From Macrostomum lignano (lineage: Eukaryota), in assembly GCA_002269645.1 (NCBI GenBank), contig NIVC01000283.1:496001-560000 (forward strand): a stretch of DNA of 64,000 bases, written 5' to 3'. Under the pieces are notes generated by a model that was not told the DNA's origin, did no database searches, and saw only the letters and a program-made list of their open reading frames with translations. The translations under genes and the position numbers were made by a program. Positions 24,901-63,339 of the stretch are shown piece after piece. Position 1 is the first letter of the stretch. Each line of letters starts with the position of its first letter.

Positions 24901-26744
24901 GCTAGCTTAGAAAAACAAACCATCTCAGAGAGTTCTGGTTGTTCCAGACACAGCAAATTGGTAGTCAGATATTACCGCGATTTAAATCACTGCGGAGGCA
25001 TTGAGTCATTAGTGCCTTACCGTCTTTATTATTTCGGTGTTCGTCACAATGAATTGTTAATATATTTGTGATAGATACAATAAATGTACATAGCATGCGC
25101 GATAAGCAATTATTTAGGCCCTAGACAAACCTACTTGGAGCGTTCGGAGATTTTAAAGCTATTGGCCCTAATTGCCTATCGCCGGTCGGCGAGTCCTACC
25201 AGTCTTTCTCCAATAGTCGCAGGTACAGTACAAGAAAAGAAAGAACGCGAGGGAACACGAACCGAATATATTTAGAGAGTGATACTACCAATGAGAATAG
25301 CTAATAAGTAATTGACTTGACGATTTAATTTGACAAGTTATATCAAGTCACAAGGTTCTTAATACGATTCACGGCGCAGATAAATTGACACTGATGATAA
25401 TAACGATTAATAACTAATTAATTACGCAACTTGCAAGCGGATCTCAGCTGAAGAAGAAGAAACCGAACAGGACCACGGAGAAGACTCCTAACCCCTGGCC
25501 TAAACCAGAACCTACACTCGAACGAGAGCTCCGCCGAATTGACCGTTCAACGGAGCACTGACTAAATTCTATCAGCACTGCCCTTCAGTGTGACACTGAG
25601 GCCCTCAGGATCGAGGCCACGTACTTGGTCAAATCCGACAGTCTCTATCTAACCGCGCTTGATAGCGACGACTTCAGACAAATTTTCTGTAGACGTTACG
25701 CTACAAGACTGAAGCGGTCGGGCGGGGGACAAAAATATGGACCGGGGGTGATGAACTCAAGCGCCTCAAAGCGCGAACCAAAACAATCGGGCAAGCGGCC
25801 GGGAAGCTGGACAAAACCAAGAACCGGGGAAAGAAGGCGAGATCCGATTGCCAAACACACTTTCATATATAGTCAGAGTCAAACCCTCAAACCCCCCCCC
25901 CTCAAGCCGGGTGGTGGTCGTCTGGCCGGCCGCCCGCTAAGCTGAATTGCACTGTGCCCGCGGCGCCGGGTAGACTTGGATTTTGCCGCGTTGCCAGGGT
26001 CCAGGCCGGTTCTGATTGGCTGGCCGCGCAAAGCCGGGGTTCGCAGAAAAACTCAACCCTCCGCTGAGTCACAGAATTGGCGTCTAACTTCTAACCTGTT
26101 GACGCAAAATAAGCTGTAACTAACAAGAAAAGTACATTAGACCGCGTGACTAAATTGAAGCAAAATAATAATTCAATAACAATAATACAGAAGCTAACTA
26201 AATAATAGAATTCACAAAAGATGCTTACACTGCATATTGTATAATGAAATTTAAATTAAATTTAAATTGGTGCAAAAGCATACATTGCTAATATATTTCA
26301 TAATTCAGTTTGCCACTGCTTCTCTTCTTCTTGCTTGCATTTCTCTATTCAAACATAGATCTACCAAAAAGTTTTAAAGAACAAATTAAAGGAGGGAGGA
26401 AAGTTCTCATGTTTGGGTATTAAAATAGGCAGAAAAGTAGCTTTAATACCAACTTACTATTAAATGGCTAAGCATTTGCAAAGATATTGAAACTAAATAC
26501 TTTTTTGCACTAAACATGGCTTTCCTAGTACGCCCAATGAGAAAAAAAACATTAAAATAGGCCTAGCCCCAGGCAAGGTCTTTAGCTAATATTATCAGAA
26601 ATTGACAGTTTATAGCAAAATTTTATTAAAAAAATACAACCCGGAACCTAATTATGCTAAAAATATAGATAATATTTTTTCGACTTGCCAAGACAAACTT
26701 GCCACGAACGCACGCCCACTCTATATTGAAATTGCAGTAATGGG

Positions 26745-28589
26745 TTAAATGTGTAATAAACCACTGAAACGAGGAGATACTCTATGGCAAAATCTCCGAG
26801 GCGAGTATCTCCTCGTTTCAGTGGTTTATTTTAATTTAATCAACAGCCTGTAAGCCTCGAGGCAATCTATATTTAGCACGAGTTAATCTCCGGCGGAGAT
26901 TTAAATCTCCGCTTCCTGTATTGTCTATGGTAAAATACTAAGTCTAAATCAAAGAGGACTGATGGTTTAGGAAGAGAGAAGCAAACTGTGAAATAAACAA
27001 GCCACAAATTTTACCAAAATGGAGGAGCTAACCGCTGACGATTTAATGGAAGTGATGCAAACGATTACCAATGAAGAAGCGTCTACAGTGCAAAGCACTA
27101 GCACCAACGTTGACGTCCGGCTTGCCGAATTTAGAGACTCGCGAATTCCAAAAACAACGGCCACAAAGGTTCGTAGCAATTGGAATAAACTGTGCGCTTG
27201 GTATACTGACTGGTGAGTGCGCCAAACTGCTCAGTTGAAAGTTGTGAAGGATATGTTCGAGTGGAGCAAGAAGGAATGGGACTACGTGCTGCAGTGCTTT
27301 CTGCTTAAACTGCGTAAAGACAACGGAGATATGTACCCGCCTGCCACGATCAAAGGTTTTGTCGCCAGTGTACAGTTCCACCTACGTACAAACAAAGTTT
27401 CTGCATGATTGGTCCATCTTCAAGGACAACGAGTTCGTCCTAACCAGGCAGTGCATCGACGCCGCCATGAAATTAAGTGCCAAATCAGGTTTTCATCTTA
27501 CACCAAAGCGAGCGAGGGTAATCGGCCTAGACGAAGAAGTGCAACTCTGGGCAGAGGGACGTTTCGGAATGTCTAATCCGACGCAGCTGGTGAATACCCT
27601 GCTGTACCACTTAGGTCTGCACCTATCGCTCAGAGCGAGTGCTGAACATCGCGCGTTAGAATTCGGTGAGCGATCGCAGCTTGTGCTCGTCAAGGAAAAT
27701 GTCACTGAATGTCTGGTGTACACCGAGCGAATGTCGAAGAACGGGAGAGTTGGTTTGCACAAGGCACACGTTGAGCCGAAAACAACCAGGATCTATTTGA
27801 ATGGCGACCCAGACAAATGTGTCATCACGATGTATAAGACCTACGTTCGTCACCGGCCGGAGCAATTCGGACTCAAGGGTCACTCTGCGTTCTATCTGAC
27901 ACCGATCAAGGCGCCGACATCTGATATATGGTATCGTAGTCAACCAATGGGTGTGCATACGATAGAAAACGTCGTGAAGAATCTGTTCTCTGGCAAGCAG
28001 ATTGTAGCCGGCAGTACGACCGGACCTATCACGAACAGTAGTCTGCGTCGGACCTGCAAGACTAGGTTGGTGGAAGGCGGCATCAGTAAGGAAATAGCAA
28101 GCCAGAAGACTGGAAGGATTACCGAAAAGGCTGACAGGTCCTACATCGACCTCCGTAAGTCAGAGAATAACATGTCGGCAGTACTATATGGAGAGCCCAC
28201 TGCCGCAGCCAAAACGAGCGGCGTGAGTGAGGTTGCAACAGCAATTGCCAACGGCAACTCCAATATTTCCGGACCGCAGGCTTTGGCTCTAAGTCAACAA
28301 TGGTCCGCCCCTGTACTAACCTTCTACGGGCCAACCACGATCAATTTCAGTTCCCCGACAAACAAGATGCAATAGTGATAGCAATAAAAAGTTGTAGACT
28401 AACGAACTAAAAGAACTATAACTGACTAACTATAACTGACTACCGTTTTAACGTTCAATAAATATACGTGTTCTTGTTTTACTATCAATTTTAAGTTTGT
28501 CTATGTTAGCGGAGTTAACGCTACCAATAATCTCCGCGAGCTTAACACTAGGGACATAGGCAAGGCGAACAGGCAAAGTTGATTAAATG
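26745..28589 (+). mobile_element. CryptonA element with 7-bp terminal direct repeats (TTAAATG) and a 28-bp-stem hairpin
   Basis: TTAAATG at 26745-26751 and 28583-28589. Perfect inverted repeat 26755-26782/26803-26830. ATTTAATCAAC (26834) pairs with GTTGATTAAAT (28578). Contains a DUF3504-type recombinase gene. Confidence 0.75.
27019..28375 (+). pseudogene. CryptonA (DUF3504/KIAA1958-like) tyrosine recombinase, one frameshift at ~27400
   Basis: Motifs FLLKLRKDNGDMYPPATI, LHLSLRASAEHRAL, MSKN, FYLTP…WYRSQPMG, ITNSSLRRT and KTGR…RSY. ORFs 27019-27216, 27217-27408 and 27359-28375 join with one indel. Confidence 0.92.
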
Positions 28590-28715
28590 GGGCAAACGCG
28601 TCAGTAACTTGATAGTCTATGGCTGTCTTCCATGCATTTAAATGGGGCAGAGTCATCAGTAGTGCTTATGGGGCAAAGTCGTCAGTAATGTTTTAGCTGG
28701 GGCAGACGCGTCAGT
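28588..28715 (+). repeat. Four direct 18-bp repeats, consensus TGGGGCARASKCRTCAGT
   Basis: Copies at 28588-28605, 28643-28660, 28669-28686 and 28698-28715. Confidence 0.9.
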
Positions 28716-28936
28716 TAGATGGTTTTGAAAAGAATAACTACTTATAATCGTATAATCGTTGAATTGATTGATTGACTGCTTTACCTTTCAAATATAAGTT
28801 TTTACCTAAAATACTAAGTGTGGATTTAATATTACTGAGCGGCGGCAGCAGCGATGGAGTCGAGCTGGACAGAAGCCTGTACATATGATTTGCCAGTTAT
28901 TAATTGGATCACCGCATTGTGTGCTGTCGTAACAGA

Positions 28937-31197
28937 ATGTCTTCTTGGCAAGACCAGTTTACGGACAGCGACGACGAGCGCATCGCAGCTGCATTAGATG
29001 AGTACGAGCAAGAGAGAGCCGCTGCTGCCCAGAATACGACTGCAGGCCCCGTGTCTTCTGTCCGCAAGCGGGAAGTTTCCGCCGATGGTATCCCACCTGC
29101 TGGTCAGCCGGCACAGAAACGGCGGAACGCCACGACGGACGACGAAAAATCCGACGACGAGTTCAGTGTGCTGGCGTTTAGTAGAGCTACGCAGCGGCTA
29201 CCACAGCCGACACTGCCGTCACAGTCAACAATGCAGCAGCAGTCATCCGCCTCCTACGAGCTTGATGAGATGGACTCGGACGACCGGGCGGCCCTCAACG
29301 CCATGCTCGACTACGAGGCGTCCATAAGCCCTGCCGTGCCGCAGCAAAAACCGCCGCCGGAACCTGCTGCAGCTGTCGCCAACCCTGCCGAGCTCTCAAC
29401 GCTGCCGAAACCGCCAGCAGTAGCCGCCGAGCTGCATCGTCAACAGCAGCAGCAGCAGCAGCAGCAGAAGCAGACTGAAGGGCAGCGATTAACGCAGCAG
29501 AGGGAGCCGTACTCGCAATGGTCAATGCAGACCATGCCTCTGGCGAGCCAACGACGGACCTGGAACCGGCCTGAAGCTCGAGCCGCCGCCGAGGAGCTTC
29601 GACCGGACGAACTGTCCTCGTTAAGCTACAGCCCGCCGTCATCTGCTGAACAGTTAATTCGAATGCTACAGCGCTCGGAGTCTGGCAGTACCATCAGCAT
29701 CAGCAGCAGCTCCAGCTCCCGACGCAACAGAGGCGCAGCGGCAAACGGTCGAGGCAGAGGCGTCGGCGTCCGACAAATCGGCCAGAATCCGCTGCTGCAG
29801 GCCGACGCGTTCCGCCAACAGTTCACGGTCACTCGATCAGCTAGCCGTTCGCTACCGCTGTATGGTGCCGCTCCGGTACAGCGGCTGGTTGAGGACACCG
29901 GAATACTAACTGTGCGGCGCTATCTGCACGTCTTCCACATCGATAATTTGCGCTTCATCGGTGAGTAGTAGTAGTAGACTACTCTTCTCCCTGCTTAACT
30001 TTATACTTATGCATGCAACGCCACAACAATCCCATGTCAGGCCGTGCAAAGGTGTACTTGGGCGAGGCGCTCGAGCCGCACTGCACCGAGTTGCTATTGG
30101 CGTCCAGTCCGGAACTTAACGTCGGCATGGACGAGTCGTGTGACCGCCGGCTAGTGGAGGACCCGCTGGCTGTCGACGAAGAGCAGCAGCAGCAGCAGCA
30201 GCACCAGCAGCATCGCACCTTGTCGGGCTACATTCGGCTTGTGACCAACACCGCCGGCTGGCACGTTTACGAGCTGCTGCACAGACTGCTGCCGGGATCC
30301 GAGGTGGGCCGAGGTTTCGTGCTCAACAACCTCACAACGCTGACAGTCTGCGGTGTGCGTTCCCCTGATACGATTGTGCGAAGTCTTACGCAGCACGACG
30401 GATACCCGCTCCTGGTCGGCATTGGCGTATCTCAATGCAGCATGCTGGTGCAGGCAACGCGCTGGGTGCTCTCCTACCCGCGGACGGCCAGCCTGCCAAA
30501 TAATACCGATGGCTTTCTGCTAGCTCACCAGCAGATGCGGGCGGCACTCCTTACGATGTTTAAGGATATCCAGCGCCAGCGTCGCATCCGTCAGGAGTGC
30601 CTCCAACGCTGCTCGGCTTGCTCAGAAGCACTGAAGCAGACAATGCGACACCTGAAGCACCGTCAGTGCCCGCTCCGGGTGGCCGTGTGCAATGCCCTAC
30701 TCCGGACATCAGGTGTCGTGTACCTTTACGGGCCATCAGGAGTCGGAAAAACCACGGCCGTTGAGCGCTACTGGGGCCTAGAGCGAGTATTCTGCCCAGC
30801 AATCAAGCCTTTCGGTGGCAACTTCATATTTGATGGGTTCGACATCAACAGGCACTCTGTCATCTTCATTGACGAAATTCGGCCCCAATATTTTGAAGGG
30901 AGTAGTGACCTACAAGCGACGCTACTGCGACTGTTGAATGGGAACTCGTTTCTAATTAACGCGAAGCATCAATCGCATGTGTACATCGACTGGGCGCAAA
31001 GACTCATAGTCCTGGCCGGGCACGCCTCGCCTGAAGAATACAGTCCGGATTTTCAGCGCCGGCTGCGAAACGAGAATAATGTCGCTATAGAAATGGATCA
31101 CGACATTGAAGAATGTCATGGGGAGTGCCAGCCAGTACCTGATGGCGCCTACGCTGCTGACGCCGCCGACGATGAGCCCGACAATGGCATGTACTGA
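28937..31197 (+). CDS. Spliced Rep/NS1-like protein with C-terminal SF3 helicase (~726 aa; intron 29961-30040)
   Basis: Donor ATCG|GTGAGT at 29961 and acceptor ATGTCAG|GC at 30040 join the ORFs in frame. Walker A LYGPSGVGKTT, FIFDGF, Walker B VIFIDE, LLRLLNG…INAKH and arginine finger FQRRL. Preceded by a C-x2-C…H…C cluster. No stops or frameshifts. Confidence 0.85.
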
Positions 31198-32422
31198 TCT
31201 TTTGATCGATCGATCGTTTAATGTTCTGTTTCTTGACTAATAACTTGGCTACTACTACTATTAGAGACTACTCTGGCCTAATAACGGTTCTTTGTTTAAA
31301 AATCAATCAATTCATTTATTCAGCTAGCCAGCCAGTCAGTCAGCTTTTCCCCCCTCCCCCGATATTTTTTCGCATAGTTTAAGGCCTTCTTAAGCCTATT
31401 GTTCCTGTATATTGACTATACAGTTTTCCGTTGACTAAAAACTGCAGGTATGAAGATTTCTTACCTTGTTGATAATAATATTGATCCACAACAATGGACA
31501 ACAGCGATGAGCAGCGGTAGATGATTAACAACAACGGCGGCAGAAGAAAAAAGACGTAAAAAAATCAAATAGCGCGCCAAAGCAGAAAGCTTAGTCTCAA
31601 TAATAAAATCTCTATATAACTATCAATCGTATCAGAAAAAGAAATTAAACGCTAGCTAGCTAGCTGCTGTTAGGGATGCGACTTAAATCTTCCTTGTCTT
31701 TACAGTCGAATACATTAATACTTTATGGCTTTAAGTTTGATTACATCTATAAATAACTGATGCATTTACATAATAAATAATAATATAATAATAATAACAT
31801 TGAACATCTGATCGCGCAATATCAAAAGATGAAAAAATTTATAAACAATGGCTGGCTAACTAACGCATGTCCATCGTACAGTTCATAGTGCGCGCATAAT
31901 TCCCTAAAATAATACGAATAGCTAAATGGATCGAGTCCCTTATAATTTTATAGTTTAATGCGCGCACTGTCAACTGTACGTAATTTTCATGCTCTCGAAC
32001 AATTAACACAGTATAGGCAATGATGAGTATAGCGGTAACAAAAATACGAGCATACAAGCATATCTGATTGCACAAATCGAACGCGTACAGTTTATAGTGC
32101 GTGCACAACTCCTAAAAATATATAAATGTGGAAATTGATTGACATTTGCAAATCTCTTAATTTTTTAGAGTTTTATGCGCGCACTATCGACTGTACTAAT
32201 AATTATATTGCAATACTATAACTGAAAACTATGTCAACAATTAGTACATGCAGAGTCTGTAGCGGTACATAAATAAAAGCACTGCCAAATAAATTAATCA
32301 TTGAAGAACGTATAAAGCGCGCACATTATACGTTATTGTTATTAATTAATTAATCAAGTTAGTGAGAACCTAGCATTCAACGCTGCCCGCGCATCACCTT
32401 AGCCTGCTGCTGCTGCTGCTGC

Positions 32423-32693
32423 TGTTGTTGTTGTTGTTTCGGTGACGCACCCGCGCCACCGGCCGACGTTAGGCCGATTTCCGTCCTCCTCCGGGCTCGG
32501 GTGGGAGGTCCCGGTACCATCTCCACATGGCCAAGGCGTTCTCCTGACTCCTGCTGAGGTCCGACAGCCCGTGCACACCAAACCGGCCCCTAGCTCTCAC
32601 CGTCGCGGCGCACTCACACACATGCTGCACCGTTTCCTCCTCGCACCCGCAGGCCCGGCACATGCCGCTGGTCTCCTTGCCGATCCTCTTCCG
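32423..32693 (-). mobile_element. 5'-truncated non-LTR retrotransposon 3' end with (CAA)5 tail
   Basis: Reads RKRIGKETSGMCRACGCEEETVQHVCEC…ALAMWRWY*, the C-x2-C-x8-H-x3-C Zn knuckle of LINE ORF2 C-termini. A short 3' UTR and a (CAA)n tail follow. Flanked on both sides by (TGC)5-6. Confidence 0.8.
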
Positions 32694-34742
32694 TGCTGCT
32701 GCTGCTGCGAGAATTCAGCTGCATCAGCCCTTCTCCTCCGCCGCTGACGAATTCCGTGCAATATGGAATCAGCACGCTGGGTCGGCCGAATCGCAGCGGA
32801 ATACTCTTCGCCACAGTCGCCGCCACCGCTGCCATTACTGCCAGCGAACATTGCTGCTCGTCGGACAACAAGAGCGGAGGATATTGCCGCAGCAGCGCCG
32901 CCGTCGACGACTGCTGGAGCAGATACTGGGGCGGCAGATGACGATGTTGACGACGACAAAGATGACATTCCCATCGCGGAGCTGTTGCCAACCGCCTGAC
33001 ATGAGCGGACCACGGCGCCCATTTGCAGAGCTCGGTGCGCATTATAACCGTAATTACGGTATACAACTGCAGCAGAGGTGCCGTGGGCGCGTGCAAATGC
33101 GTGCAGCTGCGCAGGCTCCATCGCCAGGACAACGCTGCTCAAGGTCCGGCGCCAGTCTGTCGCTACAATCGCTCTCCTTCGGCGCTGATCATCCGGCTGA
33201 AGGCGCTCTCAGTGTAAACCCGGCCGAAGATGTCCAGAAACACCGTGGACACCTCGACCGCAGGAGCAGCAACTCCGCGCGCAGCCAGGCTCGGCTGGAT
33301 ATAGCAGTCGTGCAGGCGCAGCAGGGCGTCGCAAAACGTATCCGACAGCACCATGGTAGCCGGCTCGCCATTGTGCCCGGCCTTGTGCGGAACCTCTGTC
33401 AGCGGCATCACCAGGTGCGAGTGACCCTCCAGATCGGACTCCGTGGCGCTGATCGAGGTGTCCCGAAACAGCTGATCCATGTCGTCAGCTGCCCGGTGTC
33501 GCACCCTACGGTCCAGCAGATGCTGTCGCCGCAGATAGATCCACGGCAGGAGTCGCACTGGCTGTTCGACACTGCAGAAGAACAAGCACTCCTGCACGAT
33601 GCGGCGGACACAGGCCACCTTGGCGCATAAGTTCTCATCGCCGGCGTCTGCGTGGTCGTCGGCGGCGGCGGCGCTCAGGTTGCCAGTCTCCGGCAGTCTC
33701 TGCCAACTGTGCTCGAAGAGCATCTTAAAGAAGCGGTCGCGCCGGTCGAAGATGGCGCCGACCTCGCTCCGCTTAACGTAGCTGGCCATGTAGGTCATCT
33801 GACGACCGTGATGGCCCAGCTTGTTCAGCTGTTCCTGCAGGGAGCGGATGGCGGCAAACTCGCCCTTGGCCTCGTTCAGCAACGAAAGCAAGCGTGAGAC
33901 TGTCAGCTGCCTGGCAGCCAGCGAATCCTTACAGCAGTCGTCACCGCCGCCGCCATCATCTTTGCTGCTATTTTTTCCCTCGCTCAAAATTTCTGACTGG
34001 CGCAGCCCGATTGCGTCGAGCACCTTTTGGAAACAACGGTTGCCGCGCACATTCAGCCAGCCCTCCAAACACAGAAAAATCGACACCATCTCTTGGCACT
34101 TGCGGCCGGCTGTTGAAGGTGCCAACTTTAACTCCTGGGCGACAACCTCAAGCCCGGAGACACTGGCGACGAGGTCGGGTCGCAGCACTAAGTCGGCCAG
34201 AGTCAGCTGCTTCCGAAGCCAGAGCCGTTCCAGCGTGGCGCCAACAGAGCAGCAAATTTTCTGCCAGCGACGGCTGTGGCTCTGGTTGGCAGAGACGTGC
34301 AGTTTAACTGGTGCGGACCACCAGAGTGCTGTCAATCGACCAAGCATGGCATCAATGGACGGTCGATCTGCTGCTACTCCAAGGGCCACCTTTCTGGCGG
34401 GGTGCTCTTTCGGTGGTAAAGGTTCCAGCCTGAAATAGCGTCGGTGCTGTCCTCCTGGTTGCAGCGTTTTTCCGTTTTTCCTTTGTTCTATCTCGCCTTC
34501 TTTCTGCGAGGAAGCAGCAGCAGCATAATCAGAGTCACCAACCTCAGGACTAGTCGGCTGCTGCAACTCGGGCGCCGCTATTTCCAGTGGTTTAGACGCA
34601 ACGACGGCACTTAGGTCGGAAGCTTTGTCGTTCAACTGAATGCAATCAGTAGTCGGCTGCTGCTGCGGCGACACAGGTATTAAACTGCTGCAGGCTGCTC
34701 GTCCCATTGAATCTGCAGCAACCATCAGACGATCGTAGATCG

Positions 34743-35125
34743 CCCCGTCGTCGTAATATTCTGCTGATGCTCTTAACGCAGCAGACCTCATTGCCCCGTC
34801 GTCGCCATCCTCTGCTGATGCTCTTAACGCAGCAGACCTCATTGCCCCGTCATCGCCATCCTCTGCTGATGCTCTTAACGCAGCAGACCTCATTGCCCCG
34901 TCGTCGCCATCCTCTGCTGATGCTCTTAACGCAGCAGACCTCATTGCCCCGTCGTCGCCATCCTCTGCTGATGCTCTTAACGCAGCAGACCTCATTGCCC
35001 CGTCGTCGCCATCCTCTGCTGATGCTCTTAACGCAGCAGACCTCATTGCCCCGTCGTCGCCATCCTCTGCTGATGCTCTTAACGCAGCAGACCTCATTGC
35101 CCCGTCGTCGCCATCCTCTGCTGAT
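34743..35125 (-). repeat. In-frame 51-bp VNTR (SAEDGDDGAMRSAALRA x7 plus a partial copy) within the recombinase
   Basis: Near-identical tandem copies read directly; the frame is preserved. Confidence 0.97.
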
Positions 35126-37459
35126 GATGTCACCGCAGCAGACTGATGCTCGGTTGTCACTGGCCGATGGACAGATAATGGGCATAGATGAGCTCGCAGT
35201 CGGCGGCGTGACTGTCCGCAGGCGGAACAAACGCCTATCACTTCTAGGCGATGACTGGCCTTGGTGCTGCGGCTGCATTTGATTGCCAGCCAGATCATGT
35301 CTTGCCGCTGTTTGGTAGTTGCGGCCGCCCATTCGTTCTCTGTTGGCCGCATCCGCTCCGGCATATCACTAACTTTGAACGATATATTTCTCGTGCCGGT
35401 TTTTGTAGTGCCTCTTTAGATTTCCACCGGGCACGCACTCACAGCACAATGGGCAGACGGAGCTTCTTCTTCCAGAGGGCATCTTTCTCTAATAATTATT
35501 ACAAATCAAAGGATACAGTGTTGGAAAAAATACCCGGTCCCCATCCAGCATATATATATATATGTAGAGATATGTAGAGATAGGAGCTTCATATTTAAAG
35601 CATTCTCCCTTAACCCGCCTCCTCATATTTCATTGATAGCAAGCTTATTGGCTTTCAGCTCAGTCAAGTGATCACTATTAAACGATTGACTTAATAACTA
35701 TTGGTTAAATCAACTGCAGGTCTGGGCTTGGCTGGCTGGCTGGCTGGCTTGTACTCTTCTGACTGAGTAATTTGATGCTTTTTACCATAGACTAAAGTTT
35801 ACGGTCTAGCCCTCACTAGTGGAATTTTCCGTAGTTTCTTTTAACCATAGACTGCTGCAGACCTGTCCGCTTGGGTTTATAAAACTCAGTCAGTCCCTTC
35901 CCTCCGTCAAACTGCAAGCATCAGCGCCCCAGCCTAGCCTACAGTTTCTACAGCTTTTCGAGTAAGTTACATTCATATCTGCTGCTCTGTGCATTATTCT
36001 ATTACGAAAACAATCAGCTTTCACTACAGGGCCCTTACAGGTGCTGCAGTTACAGGTGGAGCAGCAGCCTCTCCCTCTCTCTGATATAATATATACCCCT
36101 TTGTAATTAATTTGAACATGCAGCTTTTCTAACATTTTCTATTCGCACTTAACTGCTGCTATGCCTCTAATCAGTATACATATAGTATTGGAGCGAAATA
36201 ATAAACGTGTCAATAATCAGACTGTTGTCAATCAATCAATCCATCGCTTTACACCAAAAGCATGGAACCTGTACTGTACGTATACATACACCGCTGCTCT
36301 GATTCGCTGCAATATCAACACAGAGAGTGAATTCGTGTGTTCGTGCGATTATAGCGCAAAAACCATAGACTTGTTATTATCAGCTAAGCGAATTGCATAA
36401 ACTGATGCTGCCAATCTAAAAATAGCCACAACTGGCTAGCTTATACTTGGTGGAATTTCGTGTTTCATTTCTTGTTATTAAAGAGGCCGGATGAAAATGT
36501 TTGATTTCTGAAAAAAAGCTCGATTCATTAAAAAACGCTGTTGCTTCCGGTTGCTTCTGCGCTTGGAAATATAAAACTGAATAATAAGTGTTTTTTCGCG
36601 CCTCTGCAGCTTTTGATGTGGCTCAAATGAGCCTAGGGAAACCGGATAAGAACCGGATAATTAGGAAAGTAGTATAACAAAATTTGTGGAATTCCGTATG
36701 CCTTGCAGGGCAAGACTACCACGCGAAAAATTGTGGTATGATTTAGTTCGTCTAATAAAGGATAGTATAAACTTTCCTTCATACTGTGACTTGACATTTT
36801 GCATTCGTTCTGGGGCGATTGTCTTTTCGAAGTATCGCAATATGATGCCATCCTATTGCATCAGTAATAGCTAGAAAATAAAGGTAGAAGGAATTAAATC
36901 TTATATATCGAGTCTAGCTGCTTAGCTTTATAAATTGATGATATAATAATTTGATAACTAGGTAAATTCAAAAGTTTTTGTGCTGATAAAAGTAAAATAT
37001 TTGTTAAAACAAATTAGACCAGCCGTAGAACAAAAGACAACGTGTATAACATTTACCGACCGATATTTCGACCGATATTTTAGTGTACTAAAACAAAATT
37101 TACAGCAACTAGATTTTCCAATTTTTTCTGCTAAAATTACTATTACAAACAAATTATTTTTGTTTTTTATTATTTAGTAATCATAAAAAACAATCAAAAA
37201 ACAATTATTTCAGGCCATATTTACGTATCATAAAATGCAGCTCATCTTTTATGAGGACTTGAATTTCAACACTAAAATACCATAAAAGTAACAAATAATT
37301 TTTTTTTTCAATCACTCCACCTTCAAATTAACTGCTGAAGTCAGAATAGTGCATGAACTAAAAAGACAAAGCTTTAACAGTTCTTGTTAAACATTAGAAC
37401 GCAACATAATAAAATGTTTTCATAGTACGAGATATTAGCTGCAAGAATAGGCCAAATTC

Positions 37460-40283: not shown

Positions 40284-43200
40284 ATGCCAAAGGTGGGTCG
40301 TTCGTCCAAATCCAAGTGGAGTCAAATTCCAAATTTGAATTTCCAGTGATGACTATCAATTATCAAAAATCGAATATCATATATCATGATATGATATGAT
40401 ATTCATGACTTCAATGACCAATGTTACATTTTTACAATTACAAAGTTACTTAATTACTTACTGTCTGACTGACTGTTAAGTGATACTGTTATTGTTAATT
40501 TTTACTTTTAGTGTTTACTATTATGACTTATGTGAAGTGAATGTCTATTATTCGTAATTAAATTAGTTACTTATAAAGTTATTATTTTATCACTTTTATG
40601 TTTAGACTTTAGTTGTTAAAAACTCTTACTCTTGCACTTGCTTGAGTTGTCTTAAATATTGGATAGAAATTTAGAATTGGATAGAATTTATATAATTATA
40701 AATTATATAAGATTTTATAAGAGTAAGATTAATAGTATTTTAAAATTAATAAGTTAATAACAAATAAAACTGAAGGGCATTTTTAAATTTAAATTAGCAA
40801 TAGAAGTCACTTGTGGTTGTGACTTGTCTTGATAGCCCCATACTTTGTAACTCTGATACTTAGGGCTTAGCCTAGCTAGGGGTAATCAAAGAAATTTTTC
40901 TGGGAGGCACAACACAGGCTGCACAGCCACTGAGCCACATAGGCCATACATACATACCCATGGCCATGGCCATATGGGCCATATTTTCAATAATTGAAAG
41001 GGCATAGGCTATGGCTATGGCTATTGGCTATGCGCCGAATGCGCAGCGCGGCGCGCAGGTAATGCACCTAGGCAATAGCGGTAGCGATGTATATTTTTGT
41101 AAGGTTTGTTACAATTCAAATAATTTTGTGTACCTATAAGAGTAGAGAGACTAAAGAGTGGAGTCAAGTGTAGCGGGCTTCAGCTTAGGCTAAAACTAAG
41201 GCTGAAGCCAAAAATATATTAGAAAATGAAATTTTTCAAATTTTCAACAAAATTTTCAATAGCAAAAGCAAATCACCATTCTAAATATAATTCTAGGCTA
41301 CTAGTGCTAAGGCTAGTCTGGCTAGACTACTTAAAGGCCATTTGGACATGCCCATAACAATGATAATAGCCCATTGGGGATTTGGATTTGGGGGTCAATA
41401 AAACTAGAAGCTCAAACTAGTATAAACAATTTAAGCCATTATTTTATTTTTTAGCTATTCAGGAAAAGGAATGGAGTTTCCTGACTAAGTCTGGTGGTGT
41501 GGGAGCACCTGGCACTGGTACTTCTCACAGAAGCTCTGCAGCAGCAGCAGCATCAAAACGGAAAGGGTCAGCATCAACAAGCACTGCAACTGCTGCAGAT
41601 ACAGAGCCGTCAGCAAGACAGCCTCAGATCTTTTACTGCATAAATTGCCTTCAGAATGACAAAAAAGATCTCGAAAAATGCCAATTTGTTCGAGGCAATC
41701 CATCCTCCAAAAAGCGACATATTCGCAACAATCATGACACTGTTGATGCTCACAATGTGAGCTTTGGAACCGCTGACCTTGAAATCGTCCAGAGTCTTCT
41801 CAGGGCCAGGGAGGAGAAGAGTAAAAGAATTGATCGGAAGCGATCTCATTCTGCAGCCAATTCTGATGCTGCAGCCAATTCTGCTGATGCTGCTGCCAAT
41901 TCTGCTGATGCTGCTGCCAAATCTGCTGATGCTGCTGCCAATTCTGCTGATGCTGCAGCCGTTGCTACTGTCACTGATGCTTCCTCTCTCCAGCTGTTTG
42001 TTCAGCTGCCACGTTCAGACTTATCATTATCAGGTAAGTCATAGAAGCAGCACATTAATCTTTTATTAAAAAAATGAATTAAGTTAAGTAATTCTTACTG
42101 TAGCTATGGCATGATTCACTGATCAAAGAGATACGACCACCTACTTTTCATTTTCTCTAATGTCTATTAAACAGGTGCAGCAGCTGTTCAATCAACGCCA
42201 GCTATTTTTGAGCCGCAGCGTTCCACTAGTGCATCTGCTCCACCCGGAGCTGTCAGTGTTGAACAATTTGAGTCGCTATGTGGTCTAGTAAATAATCAAT
42301 CGCAGCAAATTTTGCACCTGACTGAAGCCCTAAAAAGTCTTGCTGCTGCTGTAAAGGCTGGTAGCCATAGTGCAGCTGCTGCTCCTAGTCTTCCAGTTGA
42401 TGAGCAGTACACTATGATTAAAAGTGCCAAAAATATTGCCGAGTTGCTGGACCATCCATTCGTTGGTGTGGCATCATGCGGCGTCGACCACATCGTTTTC
42501 TGTGAACCTTGCTTCGCTAGGTGTCGCAAAGTTCCGAGTCTTCACCTGCCAGCGGAATGTTCTATAGAAGAAGCTTTTCTAAAAATGTAAGTCAGGTAAC
42601 ATGGCGAAGCAGATGCTGAGATGTAGAACCTAATACAGTAACACTAACACGCTACAATACATTGACATAAAATCCTCTATAATTTAACCCTCATAATTAT
42701 ACAGGAACCCCTTGAAGAAAGGTTCTCTCAGCACTGGTCTGTTAGTTTTATCAACAACCATGCAGCAGTACCACAGCGACCATTCGAAATTCTGCCACTT
42801 TCGAGCAACTGTCGCAGATCACTTTTCGGGTGTTGCCGGCAAGGAACACTCAAACGCTGTGAGAGAATTTCATGACGATAAGAAGCGCCAATCAGGCAAT
42901 GAGAAGGTTGTAAGAACACTACTGCGCAGCGCTATCTTCATCATACAAATCGGAACCGCTAATGCGCACTACGAGGACCTTATGTGCCATTTGGACGCAT
43001 CTGATGCAGCTATCGGCAACATTGGTCACGGCTTGTAAGTTCTTGGTTTCTTGGTTTGTTTGTAGGCTAACATTAAAATTATTATTAGTAAGTTTTTTTC
43101 AAAACTAAAATTGGAATTCGCATTTCCCACGCTTCTTATTCAGCGCTTTCTGCAAAGAACTCTGGCATCTTCTCGAGTATTGCGTTGACCGAGATGCCTC

Positions 43201-45550
43201 TACGTTTCTGCACGAGGCGCTTCCATCCACTGGCCATCCGCCCTTGGTCTGCCTTACCTGCGACAAAAGCACACCAAGCCGGACCACTAATCAAGCCGCC
43301 CTAATTCTTGCTAGAGATTCATCAGGTGGAGCGGTGGCAATTCCGGCTGGCGCACCGCCTATTTATGATGACGACATGGATGCCGGAGGGGAAGCCTTAG
43401 CCAATCTTCTATTGGAAAGTGTTCAAAAGCTTAACCTTCCGCTGCCAAGCGTTGTTGGCTTTGTTGGAGATGGTCAGTATCATCAAAACGGGCCTTTTGT
43501 CGCAACTCTACGCGAGAAACTCGGCTATCATAAAAATGACAACAGCTTACCAGTCTGCTGGGATGCAGCTCATTTTTTAAATCTCGGCGTTCAGGACGTC
43601 CGTGACGTCAAGGAAATGGAGTTCTTTAAGCGATTTATAAAGCGAGCTAATGTCTTCCCCAAAATGTTTGGGCGCGGCCGTGGCTTTGCTGCTCTCGAAA
43701 AAGCAGCCAAAGCTCAGCAGGAGGCGAAGGAAAGTGCGAGGGCAAGGTGCATCTCAGTTTTTGCTGCACAACGCTTCCTGAGCTCTGCAATGAAGATGTG
43801 GGAGGCCGTTGAAGAATCATACGAAGTAAGTTTTTTACTGCTTACAGAAATTAAAGACTGAAAAGGGGGAAATATTACTGGTAATATTGAAGTAAATACA
43901 ATCAATTCCTTTCTTTTAAATGTCTAATACAGGCACTATACTCTGCCTTCCGGAAAGAGCGTCCGGAGAGCAACCCAAACGAGAAAATCCAATATTGGCT
44001 CTTTGGCTACGACTTCCTGTTCGATTTGCTTGGCCTACTAGACTTGCTGGATCCCGTCCGAAAGCTATTGGAGCTTGTTCAAGATCTGGAACAGCCTCAT
44101 TGGAAGTTGGCGCTTTTATGGCCGAAGGTGGCTAGCTTCTTAGAATGCCGAGCTCGAGGCTTTAATGTCGAGGATTATCCGAGGCTAAAAGCTTGTTACG
44201 GATCGCTTCATCCAGGTAGACTCAGACTGGGTGCTAAATCTTATTTTTATTAATTTATAAAAATTCCTGTAAGCTAGCCCAAGCAACATATTTTCAATAA
44301 ATCAAATTCTATCAACAGGTGGTACATTCCGCGGTGTGCCCCTGCTCGACGGCTGGCTTACGGACGATGACGAGAGAGACCAGCGTGTCAACTGGACTGC
44401 TCGGGACCTCCGTGACATGGAGCAGGACTTGGTCCGGCTGTCTGCTGCCCTGCTTGAGAGCCTCTCATCACGTATAGCGAAGGCTGACAAGCACTCCTCT
44501 GTGGCTGCTAGTGCGATGGTCATGGATGCGGCTAATATTATCCTGCTTCTCACCTCCGCCAACCCCGAAATTAGCACTGAGGAGTTCACCACCTCTGCCG
44601 CCGTTCTGAAGTTCGTCGAGCAGGCTGAGAAGCACCAGAGTCTGCGTGTGAGGTCTCAGCTGGCTCGGAAGTACGTGGCCGACTATGCCGGTGCCATTCA
44701 CCAGGCATTTTTGTCTGGTGTTGGCCGCGATTCCTGGCTCGAACCCAGCGTGAAAGGGCCCATCAAACGAGTCGTATGCCCAGAGTCGTGTGCTCCAAAC
44801 GTGCTTTCGCTTCAGTTGCAGCTCGTTGTGACTACTGAGTCCGGATACAAGAGCTCAGTACGGCTGAACGAAGCTGCCGTGTACAGGTCGCTGTACTCCG
44901 ATCCAAGGCTTTACAAAGCAGCCGGCCAGGAGGCATGCCGCTTGCTAGACTTTGCGCTTCATCTTGGAGGCACAGGTGAAAATAATTTTTTTATGCCTTT
45001 CGTAAAGTATTTTAGTAATTCTTAAAGTATTTTGATGTCCATACGAGTTTCTTTCTGCTTGTAAAGTTTCTGTATGTAGAAATAGGTTTAAAAAGTACGA
45101 GCTACATGTACTGTTAGCAATTATAAAATATGACAATAGACAGGAGAAACAGCATATACTTTAATTTCAGAGGCGATAGTCGAAACGTATTACTCAGTAA
45201 TGCGATCGCAGGAGCAGCAAGGGGGCCAAACTAATGACACTCTAGCGTTACGAACTAAACTAAGCTGGATGCTGCCCCCCAAAGTAAATACGCGGGAGTG
45301 CCGACTGCTTTTGAACGAAGCTGCTAGGCTCTTTTTTGTCGGAGACAGGCAACGCGGTCTTCGGCCTCATCGTGGCCCATTTTTCTACGACATTCAGCAG
45401 CGGGCAGCAAAAAAGTATCGCGTAAGCAAGGTTGTTGACCGGCACAGCAACTCCATCCCTCGCTGTCCCTTCATTGGCCGGTATCAGCATCAGCGGCGTC
45501 AGTTGGCTGAGGAAGCGGAAGCTGAGGAGCAAAGTGACGAGTCTAGCTAG
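40284..45550 (+). CDS. hAT-superfamily transposase, multi-exon, apparently intact
   Basis: Exons from 41463 (~41463-42033, 42175-42587, 42704-43035, 43144-43826, 43933-44216, 44319-44974, 45171-45550) splice in frame via GT-AG. Motifs LTCDKST (D), FVGDGQY (D), CWDAAHFLNL (CxxH-like), AQRF, GTFRGVPL and GTEAIVETYYSVM (E). The start is uncertain; a possible mini-exon ATG CCA AAG|GTGGGT lies at 40284. Confidence 0.82.
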
Positions 45551-58271: not shown

Positions 58272-59193
58272 ATGGCCAACATCGATGCCCTAATTGACGC
58301 ACTCGCCACCAGAGTGCAGAACTAAATGAATATCGGACAGAGAGTCCCCAGACCGTCAAATTTTGCCCTACGCCAGGACTTCCAACTTTGGTTCCAACAG
58401 TTTACAGCGTACTGTGAGGCTGCAGAAATCCCTGAGGAAGATAGGAAGCAGCACCTACTCAGTATGATGGACTTAAACTCAGCTTACCGAGCCATTGCCA
58501 ACCTTGAGTTGCCAGACAATCTAGAGTTTGACGATTTTGTTGAGCGCCTTTCACAGCGGTTTAATCAGCATTAAGGATGAATCTGTGGAAGATTATGCCG
58601 ACGCCCTTCGAGAAATTGTCCGCCGGGCCTACCCAAACCTGCCGGTGGAACAGAGAGATGAGTTAGCAAGAGACCGGTTCCTACTAGGTGCCAGAATCGC
58701 CGATAGAATTCGTGAACACTTGCTATTGGAGGAACCGGGTACCCTCGACGCAGCTTGTAGGCGTGTAAGGCAGAGTATGGCATCCCTCCGCACAGCTCCA
58801 GCGAGCACTGAGAAACCTTGGCCCTCAGCGAACGTATCCGCAAGTAACACACAAGATGAGGCAGTCAGACTCCGCGAAGAGCTGAAAGAACTGAGAGCGG
58901 AGCTGCAAGTCCTGAAGGCTGGATCGGGAACTGGAGTCCGCTATCATGAGCACCCTAATCCCCAACCCGGCCAGGCTGCAGCACCAGCTCAGAGAACTTT
59001 CCAGTGTGGTCGTTGCCTTGAGACCACCCACACGACCCAGCAATGCAGAAATCCTATAGTTTGCAATTACTGCAACCGGCCTGGTCACAAACGGGCCAGG
59101 TGTTTTAAACTGCAGAGAGACCAGCAGCAAACGGGAAACGGTCAGGGGACCTGGAGGCGGAGCCGCCCAGGCACCCACCCGAACCAGCAGTAG
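58272..59193 (+). pseudogene. gag: Ty3/Gypsy gag (stop near the start, frameshift ~58570), two CCHC knuckles
   Basis: DFQLWFQQFTAYC, ESVEDYADALREIVRRAYP…LARDRFLLG, CGRCLETTHTTQQC and CNYCNRPGHKRARC. Confidence 0.9.
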
Positions 59194-59199
59194 AGGCCC

Positions 59200-61270
59200 A
59201 ACCCAGCGCACCGAGCCAACCCGCACAAGGTACAGAACTTGGTTTTGTCGATGTGATATTTGAAGGCAGATTACGAATGTGTCGGGAGAACCTGTAGTAC
59301 TGACAAAAGGAAAGCAGATTGGCTGGTTCTCGCCCGTCCATGGCAGCCAACCAAATCATGATGAAGCACCCAAGGCACAAGTTAACCAGGTCTCTTGACA
59401 AAGACTGGGATCCTGTAGAGCATCTGGGCAGCTGGGACTCGCCGGACTTGTCCGAAGACCAGCAGATGTCGTTCATAAAGTTGATCCGTCAGAACAGAGA
59501 TGTCTTCGCCAAGGATGATAGCGAGCTGGGTTCAACTGACCAGGCAATGCATACCATAGACACCGGGGACGCCAGGCCAACTAGAGAACCACCACGCCGC
59601 ATCCTGCCGCACATAAGGCCAGAAATCGATAAAGAAATCGACAGGCTAATAGACTGCGGTAGGATCTACGAGTGTCAATCCCCGTGGGTCAGCCCGGTCG
59701 TACAAGTGCGGAAGAAGGACGGATCCATCAGGCTGTGCCTGGATTATCGCCGACTAAATGAAGTAACCAATCCTGACCCATTTCCGCCGCCGCGAATGGA
59801 TGAAACTTTAGAAGCACTTGCAGGAAATGCTAATTTTTCAACTCTAGACTTGGCTTCAGGCTATCATCAATGCCCGCTAGATCCAAAAGATCAACTTAAG
59901 ACGGCATTCGTAGTTCCAAATAGAGGTCAGTTCGCCTGGCGATATGTGAGTTTTGGGCTAAGAAATGCCCCGGCGACTTTCATCAAGCTGATGAACCTTG
60001 TCATGGCTTGGCTGACATGGAGAGAGTGTCTTGTGTATTTGACGATGTAATAGTTTTTTCAAAGTCCTACGAAGAGCATTTTGAGCGGCTCCAGCATGTT
60101 TTCGATCGCTTACGAACTGCTGGGATCCGCTTGAAAGCCAAGAAATGCCATTTTTTGTCCAAGGAAGCCAAGTTCTTAGGGCACGTCGTATCGTCTGAAG
60201 GTATTGCGACAGATCCTGCGAAGACACAAGAAATTCGAAACTGGCCCACACCCAAGAATATAAAAGAACTGCAGTCATTTTTGGGCCTCTGCTCCTACTA
60301 CAGAAATTTCGTGAATGACTTCTCAGTTAAGGCAGCCGCGTTGTTGAAGCTCATGCGCAAGGACTCACAGTTTATGTGGGGCCCAGAACAACAGCAGGCG
60401 TTTTCCGAACTCAAGAAATCGCTAACATCAGCGGAGATCATGGCCTATCCAGACTTTTCCGAGGGAGCTGGACCATTTGTGCTGGACACCGACGCCAGCT
60501 CAAAGATTGGGATCGGTGCAGTCTTGTCACAATGCCAACCCGATGGGTCAGAGCGCGTCATTGCCTATGGATCCAGGTCGCTGGCAGATTGTGAAAGAAA
60601 CTACTGTACTACCAGACTAGAACTCCTAGCGATAGTTCACTTCGTAAAGCTGTACAAGTACTATTTGCTGGGAAGGAAATTTAAGATACGGACAGACCAT
60701 AGCGCTCTCTCGTGGTTGACAAATCGAGGACGTCGAGGGGCAATGTGCTAGATGGCTTGAGACGCTGCAGCGTTACGACTTTGAGATCTCGCACAGGAAG
60801 GGAATTTTCCATCAGAATGCGAATAGCCTTTCGCAGAAATTTCGACGGCATTGGGCTCAAGACTCGTGCCCAACGTTCAGCAGTCCACCCCTTGTTAAAG
60901 AACAGGTAAACGTAATGCTGGCTTCGCCGCTAAACAAAGATCATCTCAAGGAGGCTCAAAATCAAGATCCGGCTCTGGTACGAATCAGGCAGTTTTTAGA
61001 TGGCAAGATCACGCAAATAGACCCAATCATCAGTCCAACCATGAGAGAAATCTGGGCCCACCGAAATCAGATAGAAGTGGACGATGAACTCTTCCTAATT
61101 CGAGTTCCAGGCACCTCGCGAAAAAAATAGTCTTGCCTGACTGTCTCTTCGAGGAAGTCGCCAAAATCTTACACGATGGTGCAAGCGGCTGTCACCTAGG
61201 AATTAAAAAAACCCAAGCGAAATTCATACAGCGGTTTTGGTGGCCGGGACTGTCCCGCAAGGTTGAAGAG
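59200..61270 (+). pseudogene. pol: Ty3/Gypsy pol: RT, RNase H and integrase N-terminus; protease core missing; 3'-truncated; several frameshifts
   Basis: RLCLDYRRLNE, LDLASGYHQ, YL/DDVIVFS (frameshift ~60045), LDTDASSKIGIGAVLSQ, TRLELLAI, IRTDHSALSWL and LHDGASGCHLG…RFWWPG. Ends before the integrase C-x2-C and DDE core. Confidence 0.95.
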
Positions 61271-61430
61271 GTGCTGCTGCTGCTTCTCGTCCTGCTGTTG
61301 CTGCTGCTGCTGCTGATGCTGCTGCTTATGCTGCTGATGCTGCTGCTGCTGCTGCTGCTCTTGGGGCTGTTGCCCATCGTGCCGTTGCTTTTAGCTCTGA
61401 TGCAGTTGCAGTTGCAGTTGACAGATGTAT
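61270..61430. repeat. Degenerate (CTG)n microsatellite at the Gypsy breakpoint
   Basis: GCT/GAT/GTT triplet run read directly. Confidence 0.85.
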
Positions 61431-63339
61431 GGATACGGCAAAATTGGATAGGGTTGTGTAAAAAAACATCGATGGGTATGGAGAGAAGCCAGGGAAGAAG
61501 TAATTCATTTGAGTAAGATGAAAGGAAACGAGAAATTGAAAGAAAAGAAATAAAAATGAAATGAAAAGAAGTGAAAATGAAAAGAAAAGAAATGACATGA
61601 GCCAAGAGTAATAATTTCTTTCGAAAAATGTAGAAATTAGAAAGTGATAAACTTGCAGCGTGAGGCACAGCTGAGAAAAGTTTCAGATCTGTCGCCGAAT
61701 CGATCGATGCATTCTATTTTTATTTCAAACGCAGAGTTACGTTTCTTACTCATCTAACGAATATAATAACTTCAAGTGCACATGAAGGATTTACGAAGTG
61801 TAGGATTTACGAGTGTGGTACTTATGCACTTGAAGTTATAATAACTACTGAGTTTCGCAACAACCCTCGGACCACTATTTTAGTTTAATTGATTGAATTG
61901 AGAGGCGGGTGTCGCTATTAAAGTGATATTATTATCGAAATTTTTGAATAAGAAGTCCTGGGCATTGGCTTGGTTGTTAATTTCAATGCATCAACTTGCA
62001 GGCCTCTCACTGTAGCTGGCGCTGAATGTACACCTTATAAATTTGAATGCTTTAAAGCAGGAATTTTCAATCGTTGTTTGTGCTTCGAATTTTTTTTCAG
62101 AAGAGAGCCTTGTATTGCTGAAAAGAGCTAGAAACACTGAGTTCGGGAATATAATTTTTTGCTGAGATTTGAAAAATTAAAAGCACAGCATTAAAAAGAA
62201 GATTTCCATGCATTTTACTTTATATACTCATTGTACGCTCTCCCATATCGAAAAACCCTTCTGTGACGAATTTAGGATGACTATTTACGAAGTAGTGAAC
62301 GATGTCGATGTTGCGTCGGATGTCGAGAGTTTATTTTAATCAATTCACAATTGATAATAACCTAGTTCGTCTGATACTATAGATAGCGATGAGCGTTGGT
62401 AGTACTAGTAGTATTGTAATGAAACGGTGTGGAGGAAGGCATGAGCGAGAGGAAGAAAAATATTTGAATAAGTTTTATATACTGCTAACTATTTCTATGA
62501 ATTATACGGTATTACAAAAATACGTCAACGCTAATAAATTAAATAAGTAGGTTGAATTTAAGTGTAATGTACATGTAAAAAGAGATTATATACTGTATGT
62601 TTTACAGGTACGACGCAGAATAGGAAAGAAGTATGAAAGTGACATCGTCACACTCGCCTCTTTTCCAAAAAGAGGTTTAGCTCGTAGCTACACTACTTAC
62701 AAGTAGAAGGCTGTGTGCATACTAATTATTGAAAGAATATCGAACGTCCTAGAGTGAACATGTGTCTTTAAAAAGCATATTGTTGAGTTATTTTGAGTAT
62801 AGTTTCATTAATAGGAAAGCTTCAGAGCAAAACATCAAATCGAAGATTGTACGAGCTACTATTAAGACAAGGCAAAAAGCGAATCAATAATTGCTGAAAA
62901 TTATCGAATTAAAGTAAATAATGCATCAATATTTGAAGTGTAAATTAAAAACAAACAAATGCAATATCAAAGAATTTCAACCTATGTAGAGTAAGAATAA
63001 TAAGTAATATGCAGATGGGTCAATGAAAAAACCAGCAGAATTAAGCACACTGGAAGACGCCGCCGATGCGACGGAGTTGAGAAGGCGAAAACGATGCAGA
63101 ATGCATCCGCTGCAGAGTGCAGCCAGCCGACAGACGGCTCACCAGCTGGGCCGGTTTCGGTGGACCGCACGGGCGCGCCCCCGATGGGACGCAGAAGCCG
63201 CCCAGACTCGCGCACAGTGGCGCAGAAAAAACAGGCACATAGAAAAGAAAGAACGCTGAAAAACGCCTATGGCGTCCGGCTTTCGAGGGCCGGTACCGCA
63301 ACAAATAGAATGTTTCACACGCTCAAATTGCTGAGATGT

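Follow-up and report, generated by a model that had tools for sequence, protein, structure and literature searches.

Results

A Rep gene within a bounded mobile element

The Rep gene at 28937..31197 of the window (the whole 64,000-nucleotide stretch of Macrostomum lignano DNA analysed here) very probably belongs to a bounded mobile unit with recombination-type junctions, paired genes and a nick-less Rep that is under selection. With moderate confidence we further propose that this two-gene element of 8.15 kb is excised and integrated by its own likely recombinase, and that the nick-less Rep-helicase copies the excised circle in the manner of polyomavirus LT and papillomavirus E1. The element has the following parts.

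26693..36684, no strand: whole element, 8154 bp (8.15 kb) without the nested insert
26693..26700, + strand: left junction core ACAAACTT, 8 bp; a single copy lies between the same flanks at contig C105
26701..26744, no strand: left end, common to the copies on C150, C51, C1789 and C1938
26745..28582, + strand: nested DUF3504 (CryptonA-type) insert, outside the element proper; 1838 bp at TTAAAT; Pfam DUF3504 E 2e-24
28583..28716, + strand: four direct repeats of 16-24 nt (GGGCA.A..C.TCAGT; family D13); candidate Rep binding sites or origin
28937..31197, + strand: Rep CDS, ATG at 28937; 2181 nt, i.e. 726 aa, once spliced
31875..32196, no strand: cluster of four inverted repeats centred on TGCG(C/T)GCA, in the interval where the two genes converge; further candidate origin
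32377..35482, - strand: tyrosine-recombinase-like gene, convergent to Rep; 3' coordinate approximate; N-terminal C2H2-type finger
36677..36684, + strand: right junction core ACAAAATT, 7/8 identical to the left core

The boundaries were read from five close copies, which share with the window the sequence 28583-36685 and the short piece 26693-26744. An empty site on C105 (G000:C105:735687-735694) carries the element's flanks around one ACAAACTT. In family C, an element of 8090 bp has the left core GCTATCTTG, and GCAAACTTG both as right core and at its empty site. Families A and C thus have junction cores of 8-9 bp, with empty sites and no inverted repeats; a candidate terminal inverted repeat at 28754/36227 was rejected because it lies away from the true ends. 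Among the C105 and C1600 sites (L061 and L062), the empty C105 site reads ACAAACTT and an old paralog ACAAAAGT, next to ACAAAATT as the right core of the window; judging from this one-base difference, C105 may be an excision footprint instead of a pre-insertion site.

The 764-Mb genome holds six close Rep copies (95-100% identity) and 48 exon-level matches; the four Rep families stand at about 35-46% helicase identity. Family A occurs on at least five different flanks (window, C150, the C51 group, C3646 and C277), and three of the six close copies sit at one shared site. Families A and C measure 8.1-8.2 kb, with two genes each. Without the nested insert, the element has only two long ORFs and no reverse transcriptase match in Pfam. 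In family A, three non-coding parts were checked; since none of them holds a stop-free stretch of more than 94 codons, and hence no third ORF, there is no capsid gene in them. Family B loci (L041-L046, L059-L060 and L076) are larger and rearranged, have an intron within the helicase, and also carry additional zinc-finger ORFs and recombinase genes split by introns. In run X10, one contig connects window position 31322 to 36228, which suggests an internally deleted, non-autonomous derivative. Elsewhere in the window, at 43109-45550 and 58525-61516, there are ORF remnants that by eye look DNA transposase-like and Gypsy-type gag-pol-like.

The DUF3504 gene upstream of Rep was considered as its partner and rejected as an unrelated nested insert. 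The insert is missing from all five other close copies compared, and a joint from 26744 to 28583 that skips it was present in four of four runs compared. Its left end has many genomic copies, and a perfect 28-bp hairpin lies at 26755-26830. Run X10 also contains an end-to-start joint of the insert, from 28588 to 26755, which would fit an excised circle as well as a tandem copy.

The second gene is likely to encode a tyrosine recombinase

The preliminary description had linked Rep to a tyrosine recombinase. The link fails for the upstream DUF3504 gene and holds for the downstream, convergent gene. In the window, this gene is damaged by frameshifts near 35400 and 33165 and by an insertion of ~264 nt near its 3' end; the frames are open over 885 aa in C150 and 880 aa in C3646. 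Within the gene, at 34688-35194, the window has seven to eight tandem 51-nt units, and C150 and C3646 have fewer. In the domain at the end of the protein, the residues Arg, Lys, Arg and Tyr are found, in this order, in 5, 6, 6 and 5 of six distinct rows, the C1938 copy being without the first Arg and the Tyr. Relative to the Crypton catalytic set, Arg-(His)-Arg-Tyr, the element recombinase thus has Arg, Lys, Arg and Tyr and lacks the His of HxxR, which is missing from all six rows.

The gene scored 0.95 against Phage_integrase clusters in Atlas, and PHROGs returned a weak integrase match for one of seven rows (E 0.0087); no homolog was found in Pfam, PDB or two word-based database searches. 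BLASTP shows no relationship with the DUF3504 protein, a comparison made with CryptonA only among groups A, F, I, S and V. The dN/dS ratio between subfamilies is 0.16. From its sequence, and with independent support from the junctions, the second gene is likely to be a tyrosine recombinase.

A recombinase match lies within 10 kb at 15 of the 23 Rep loci (a hand count in which some entries represent one site more than once), and these loci span all four families. No match was found within this distance at the other eight, which are mostly family B. Rep and recombinase are convergent in family A and tandem in families C and D. Five recombinase loci had no Rep in the stretches examined.

Rep is a spliced nuclear gene of CRESS-type origin

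Rep is a spliced nuclear gene derived from ssDNA viruses (CRESS-type). Its parts are as follows.

28937..29960, + strand: exon 1; low-complexity aa 1-330, then the probable motif-I strand HVFHI (aa 331-335)
29961..30040, + strand: intron of 80 nt, GT-AG (GTGAGT..CAG), in frame, inside the nuclease-fold region
30041..30410, + strand: HUH-derived domain without catalytic residues; TLS stands at HUH, Ser456 at the motif-III Tyr and Ser at the beta-2 Glu position
30217-30225, + strand: TLS at the HUH position, aa 401-403
30382-30384, + strand: Ser456 at the motif-III Tyr position, within VRSLTQ
30411..30690, + strand: helical middle (oligomerisation-like) region with CxxC at 30610-30621 and Cys551; putative zinc site
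30691..31197, + strand: SF3 helicase/ATPase with Walker A, Walker B, motif C with His, Arg finger and C-terminal H..C.GxC
30730-30753, + strand: Walker A GPSGVGKT, aa 572
30868-30876, + strand: Walker B IDE, aa 618-620
31012-31023, + strand: motif C LAGH, His669 replacing Asn
31054-31065, + strand: Arg finger QRR, aa 680-682

The in-frame GT-AG intron and nuclear expression had both been put forward in the preliminary description, and both are borne out. The C150 copy has an intron of 81 nt, likewise in frame, and exactly the 80 nt of the window intron are skipped in one contig of the public run X5, taken to be RNA by guess, as no run is recorded as RNA. The joint was absent from the contigs of the other three of the four runs compared. 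A splice acceptor AG at 28934-28935, immediately 5' of the Rep ATG, is used in a contig of run X7 that starts in an exon ~400 bp outside the C150 copy (L079:1380-1524). Part of Rep transcription is therefore read-through from a flank exon.

As had been noticed earlier, the N-terminal ~330 aa are of low complexity (hydrophobic fraction 0.19 vs 0.36), and no Pfam match was found there. A word-based database search with Rep gave a 95%-identical Macrostomum lignano protein as its sole match. Searching 1.84 billion proteins with a profile yielded 265 matches, and what follows concerns the best 150 of them. Among the matches listed, the nearest relatives are fragments from other assemblies; CRESS-like Reps, in which the FAVTV, HHH and YITK motifs are intact, come next. 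The window Rep has no LT or E1 match in Pfam, and 37 of the search matches, when scanned, gave at most matches of the helicase part to PPV_E1_C and none to an LT family. Metagenome scans yielded no relative, nor did a scan of viral contigs, which was a close-match search only. Ten clade rows cluster with an SH-aLRT of 98 in a quick tree, which covers 116 of 131 rows, the 15 short ones having been dropped; the sister group drawn there consists of misaligned canonical Reps and is not trusted.

The nicking residues of Rep are lost throughout the clade

The loss of HUH nicking was suspected from the outset, and the alignments support it with different motif assignments. We compared a profile of the clade N-terminal region with a profile of Tyr-bearing Reps, built from 85 Reps whose best-scoring search stretch lay outside that region. 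By hhalign the two match with 92.8% probability (E 4e-7), in a register that places HHH onto TLS and YITKED onto SLTQHD. Single sequences score weakly against the Tyr-bearing profile: the window reached 1.0 bit, a value that 7 of 200 shuffles also attained, and four of nine sequences scored above all shuffles. Because the 131-row alignment A3 puts motif II elsewhere than the profile alignment does, the motif-II register rests on the other alignments, including hhalign.

With HUH aligned to TLS, WHVY is ruled out as its counterpart, and the alignment also excludes FVLNN as motif I; one of these two strings lies in a helix and the other in a loop. Motif I is most likely HVFHI, at the end of exon 1, as judged by where it lies, directly ahead of the aligned helix, so that the motif order is normal and not unusual as had been thought, and splicing would complete the nuclease fold. 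The reading of VRSLTQ as a motif III without the catalytic Tyr was correct, Ser456 taking its place. Of the clade rows, 13 span motif III, and none of them has the Tyr (they have Ser, Arg, Trp, Ala, Lys or Thr there) vs 95 of 106 other rows, and most of the Tyr-less exceptions inspected among the 11 remaining rows are misaligned canonical Reps. The losses of HUH, motif-III Tyr and motif-C Asn are common to the four M. lignano families and the fragments from other assemblies.

The region without catalytic residues is conserved. Between two family B copies its dN/dS is 0.19 (p 1e-8), and between the window and C150 it is 0.11 (p 0.05); the dead nuclease region is therefore maintained by purifying selection and is not decaying. 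For exon 2, window vs C150, we counted eight synonymous and five non-synonymous changes (dN/dS 0.19, p 0.004); the value against C3646, 0.45, was not significant. The first 330 Rep codons have no synonymous and six non-synonymous changes.

The helicase is Rep-like in sequence and in predicted structure

Walker A, Walker B and the arginine finger are intact, and the motif-C Asn is replaced by His669, both as first described. All 14 clade rows that extend this far have lost the Asn (to His, Val or Cys), which 96 of 106 other rows possess; despite this loss, the clade retains both Walker motifs and the Arg finger. Processive helicase activity is therefore not assured. The Cys/His cluster noted earlier ahead of the ATPase was confirmed in part: CSAC is present at aa 532-535, and the CxxC, Cys551 and the C-terminal H..C.GxC are kept in other families, where both His of HLKH are not.

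A structure model of Rep built from 131 alignment rows reached a pLDDT of 84.8 (an earlier model from 10 rows was poor, at 48.7). Its top Foldseek matches in PDB were Vientovirus Rep, E1 and AAV Rep, and in BFVD it matched CRESS or parvovirus Reps. VIA gave Z scores of 11.2 for ClpB, 11.1 for SV40 LT, 10.8 for PCV2 Rep and 10.3 for Vientovirus Rep; MuB and TnsC, at 9.1-9.2, fall below LT and PCV2 Rep, with all values close and generic for AAA+ folds. The SV40 LT alignment pairs model residues 132-353 with LT 266-549 (rmsd 4.8, 179 aligned). We rejected a cellular AAA+ origin, since ClpB, although at the top of VIA (140 aligned), covers the ATPase only, Vientovirus Rep aligns across model residues 1-360, and the inspected profile matches are Reps. 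The original assignment to ssDNA-virus-like SF3 helicases is thereby upheld.

Candidate origins and a proposed replication cycle

The GGGCA.A..C.TCAGT repeat occurs four times within the element and not at all in the rest of the window. The inverted-repeat cluster at 31875-32196 has a DNA fold z of -4.64 vs 100 shuffles. Judged by these repeats, either 28583-28716 or 31875-32196 is a candidate origin. The nonamer TAATATTAC at 28827 is one of two loose matches in the element vs six per strand elsewhere in the window; since matches are also common outside the element, they give no evidence for a rolling-circle origin.

In the cycle that we propose, the recombinase would join both 8-bp cores and release a dsDNA circle. 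The catalytically dead HUH fold would serve as an origin-binding domain on the repeats close to the left end, the middle region would drive formation of a Rep hexamer, and the SF3 motor would melt and unwind DNA for synthesis by host primase and polymerases, in the way known for LT of polyomaviruses and E1 of papillomaviruses. Extra circles would then re-integrate at similar AT-rich cores. Labour would be divided between a recombinase that excises and integrates and a Rep that binds and unwinds without nicking; the window copy would need recombinase in trans. Against this cycle, no circle junction, from right to left end, was found among the joints of the four runs, whose contigs drop rare forms; the low copy number and the lost motif-C Asn also weigh against it.

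Discussion

Alternative roles for Rep

The proposal that Rep copies an excised circle has to be weighed against four others. The Rep-derived ATPase might regulate transposition, binding element or target DNA and delivering or activating the recombinase like MuB, TnsC and IstB, with no replication involved. We think this unlikely, and it keeps what weight it has because the sensor Asn is lost clade-wide, with both Walker motifs and the Arg finger kept; the low copy number and the tight Rep-recombinase linkage also suit it. Against a regulator, Rep retains, under selection, all the parts of its architecture, from the HUH fold through the helical middle to SF3, MuB and TnsC resemble the model less than LT and PCV2 Rep do, albeit within the narrow and generic range of Z scores given above, and Cryptons are described as moving with the recombinase alone (PMC3212892, in the text available).

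Two further readings are less likely still, and equally so. If the element were an integrated virus, satellite or segment, with its capsid encoded elsewhere or lost from these copies, one would expect the closest intact relatives to be CRESS-like Reps, as they are among the matches listed, and the larger family B loci with further ORFs would fit. The compact two-gene format of families A and C, the lack of a longer stop-free stretch in the non-coding parts of family A, the introns, and a close-match search of viral contigs that returned no relative all speak against a virus. Alternatively, Rep could be passive cargo, an endogenous viral gene caught in a Crypton-like element, or could face the host, e.g. 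as an antiviral dominant-negative Rep. Read-through transcription from the flank and the five recombinase loci without Rep are in line with such a role; the pairing, however, persists in four deeply diverged families with differing gene orientation, and selection was measured between mobile copies at different sites.

The idea, raised in the preliminary description, that the recombinase supplies the nick for rolling-circle replication is hardly credible: Rep lacks the Tyr and a tyrosine recombinase is linked to it, but tyrosine recombinases form a 3'-phosphotyrosine and free a 5'-OH, which leaves the 3' end blocked and provides no 3'-OH primer, so that they cannot replace the Rep nick, and the TAATATTAC nonamer offers nothing in its favour.

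Relation to known elements and viruses

Our reading of Rep as the replicase of a recombinase-mobilized element places it between several known systems. Cryptons are described as having unequal short direct repeats that reflect target microhomology, no TIRs or TSD, and a proposed circular intermediate; the near-identical but unequal cores and the lack of a target duplication therefore fit the Crypton model (PMC3212892, PMC13465315, PMC9977147, in the sections available). The element shares with Cryptons short imperfect direct repeats, the absence of TIR and TSD, dispersed sites and the absence of a reverse transcriptase, and probably also the use of a tyrosine recombinase. Unlike them it carries a Rep-SF3 gene, and its recombinase is not DUF3504-like. 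The second genes or domains described for Cryptons in the same sections are a DDE transposase, a C48 peptidase and HTH/GCR1_C (PMC3212892, PMC13465315, PMC9977147).

LT and E1 are the known initiators that combine an inactivated HUH domain with SF3 (PMC6668415, in part). By sequence and model, the element Rep likewise has an SF3 helicase behind an inactivated HUH domain, and its model aligns with theirs over the middle and helicase regions; origin binding is predicted only. In contrast to LT and E1, the element has no capsid, no J-domain was seen, it has its own recombinase, and the motif-C Asn is replaced. As Rep groups by sequence with CRESS-like Reps and not with LT or E1, this points to an independent loss of nicking. 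With the CRESS-DNA virus Reps of an invertebrate and metagenome group (among them P0010, P0019, P0035 and P0047) it shares a colinear nuclease fold, the DPF(V/L)L linker and the SF3 helicase, and P0035 and P0047 also have Cys551 and the C-terminal H..CxGC. It keeps Walker A, Walker B and the Arg finger of the CRESS SF3 set, with the motif-C Asn replaced, and differs from these Reps by the loss of HUH, Glu and Tyr, the long low-complexity N-terminus, the intron and the absence of a capsid.

Prokaryotic integrative elements (phage satellites and integrative plasmids) pair an integrase with a replication helicase, and the yeast 2-micron has Flp. The logic is alike, namely recombinase excision and autonomous copying; the proteins differ. 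Replitrons, Helitrons and the ssDNA-virus-like transposons of Liu et al. are eukaryotic mobile elements with Rep-derived proteins (PMC10288648, PMC3198968, in the portions available). Replitrons and Helitrons, however, use an active HUH transposase, whereas the element Rep is without HUH and Tyr; and of the elements of Liu et al., the one from Tuber combines Rep, transposase ORFs and TIRs, and the acorn-worm element has a capsid ORF (both papers, same portions). The word 'recombinase' is absent from the main text of PMC3198968.

Our literature search for the combination of Rep and recombinase found no such element described; Repbase, supplements and subscription journals were outside its scope, and Repbase may list the element under a different name. 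An element that joins a recombinase to a convergently LT/E1-like replicase is apparently an undescribed kind. Tentatively, and with slightly less confidence than we place in the replication cycle itself, we suggest a group of capsid-less animal episome-transposons across several hosts, with a new tyrosine-recombinase lineage for integration and a CRESS-derived initiator that would amplify the excised circle and that made the nick-less switch independently. Clean excision is reported for Cryptons, and yet their copies increase in number in a way that is described as unknown (PMC9977147, in the part available); an element with a candidate replication initiator makes 'copy the circle' testable as an answer. 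A further gain would be a recombinase lineage not recognised by Pfam. Why the Reps of polyoma- and papillomaviruses gave up nicking and became structural binders of the origin has been called obscure (PMC6668415, in part). The element Rep looks like a separate case of this switch, with close Tyr-bearing relatives in databases, and in a laboratory animal. Outside the clade, the CRESS-like Rep P0023 is also without HUH and has Gln for Tyr, and its sequence possibly records another independent loss of both.
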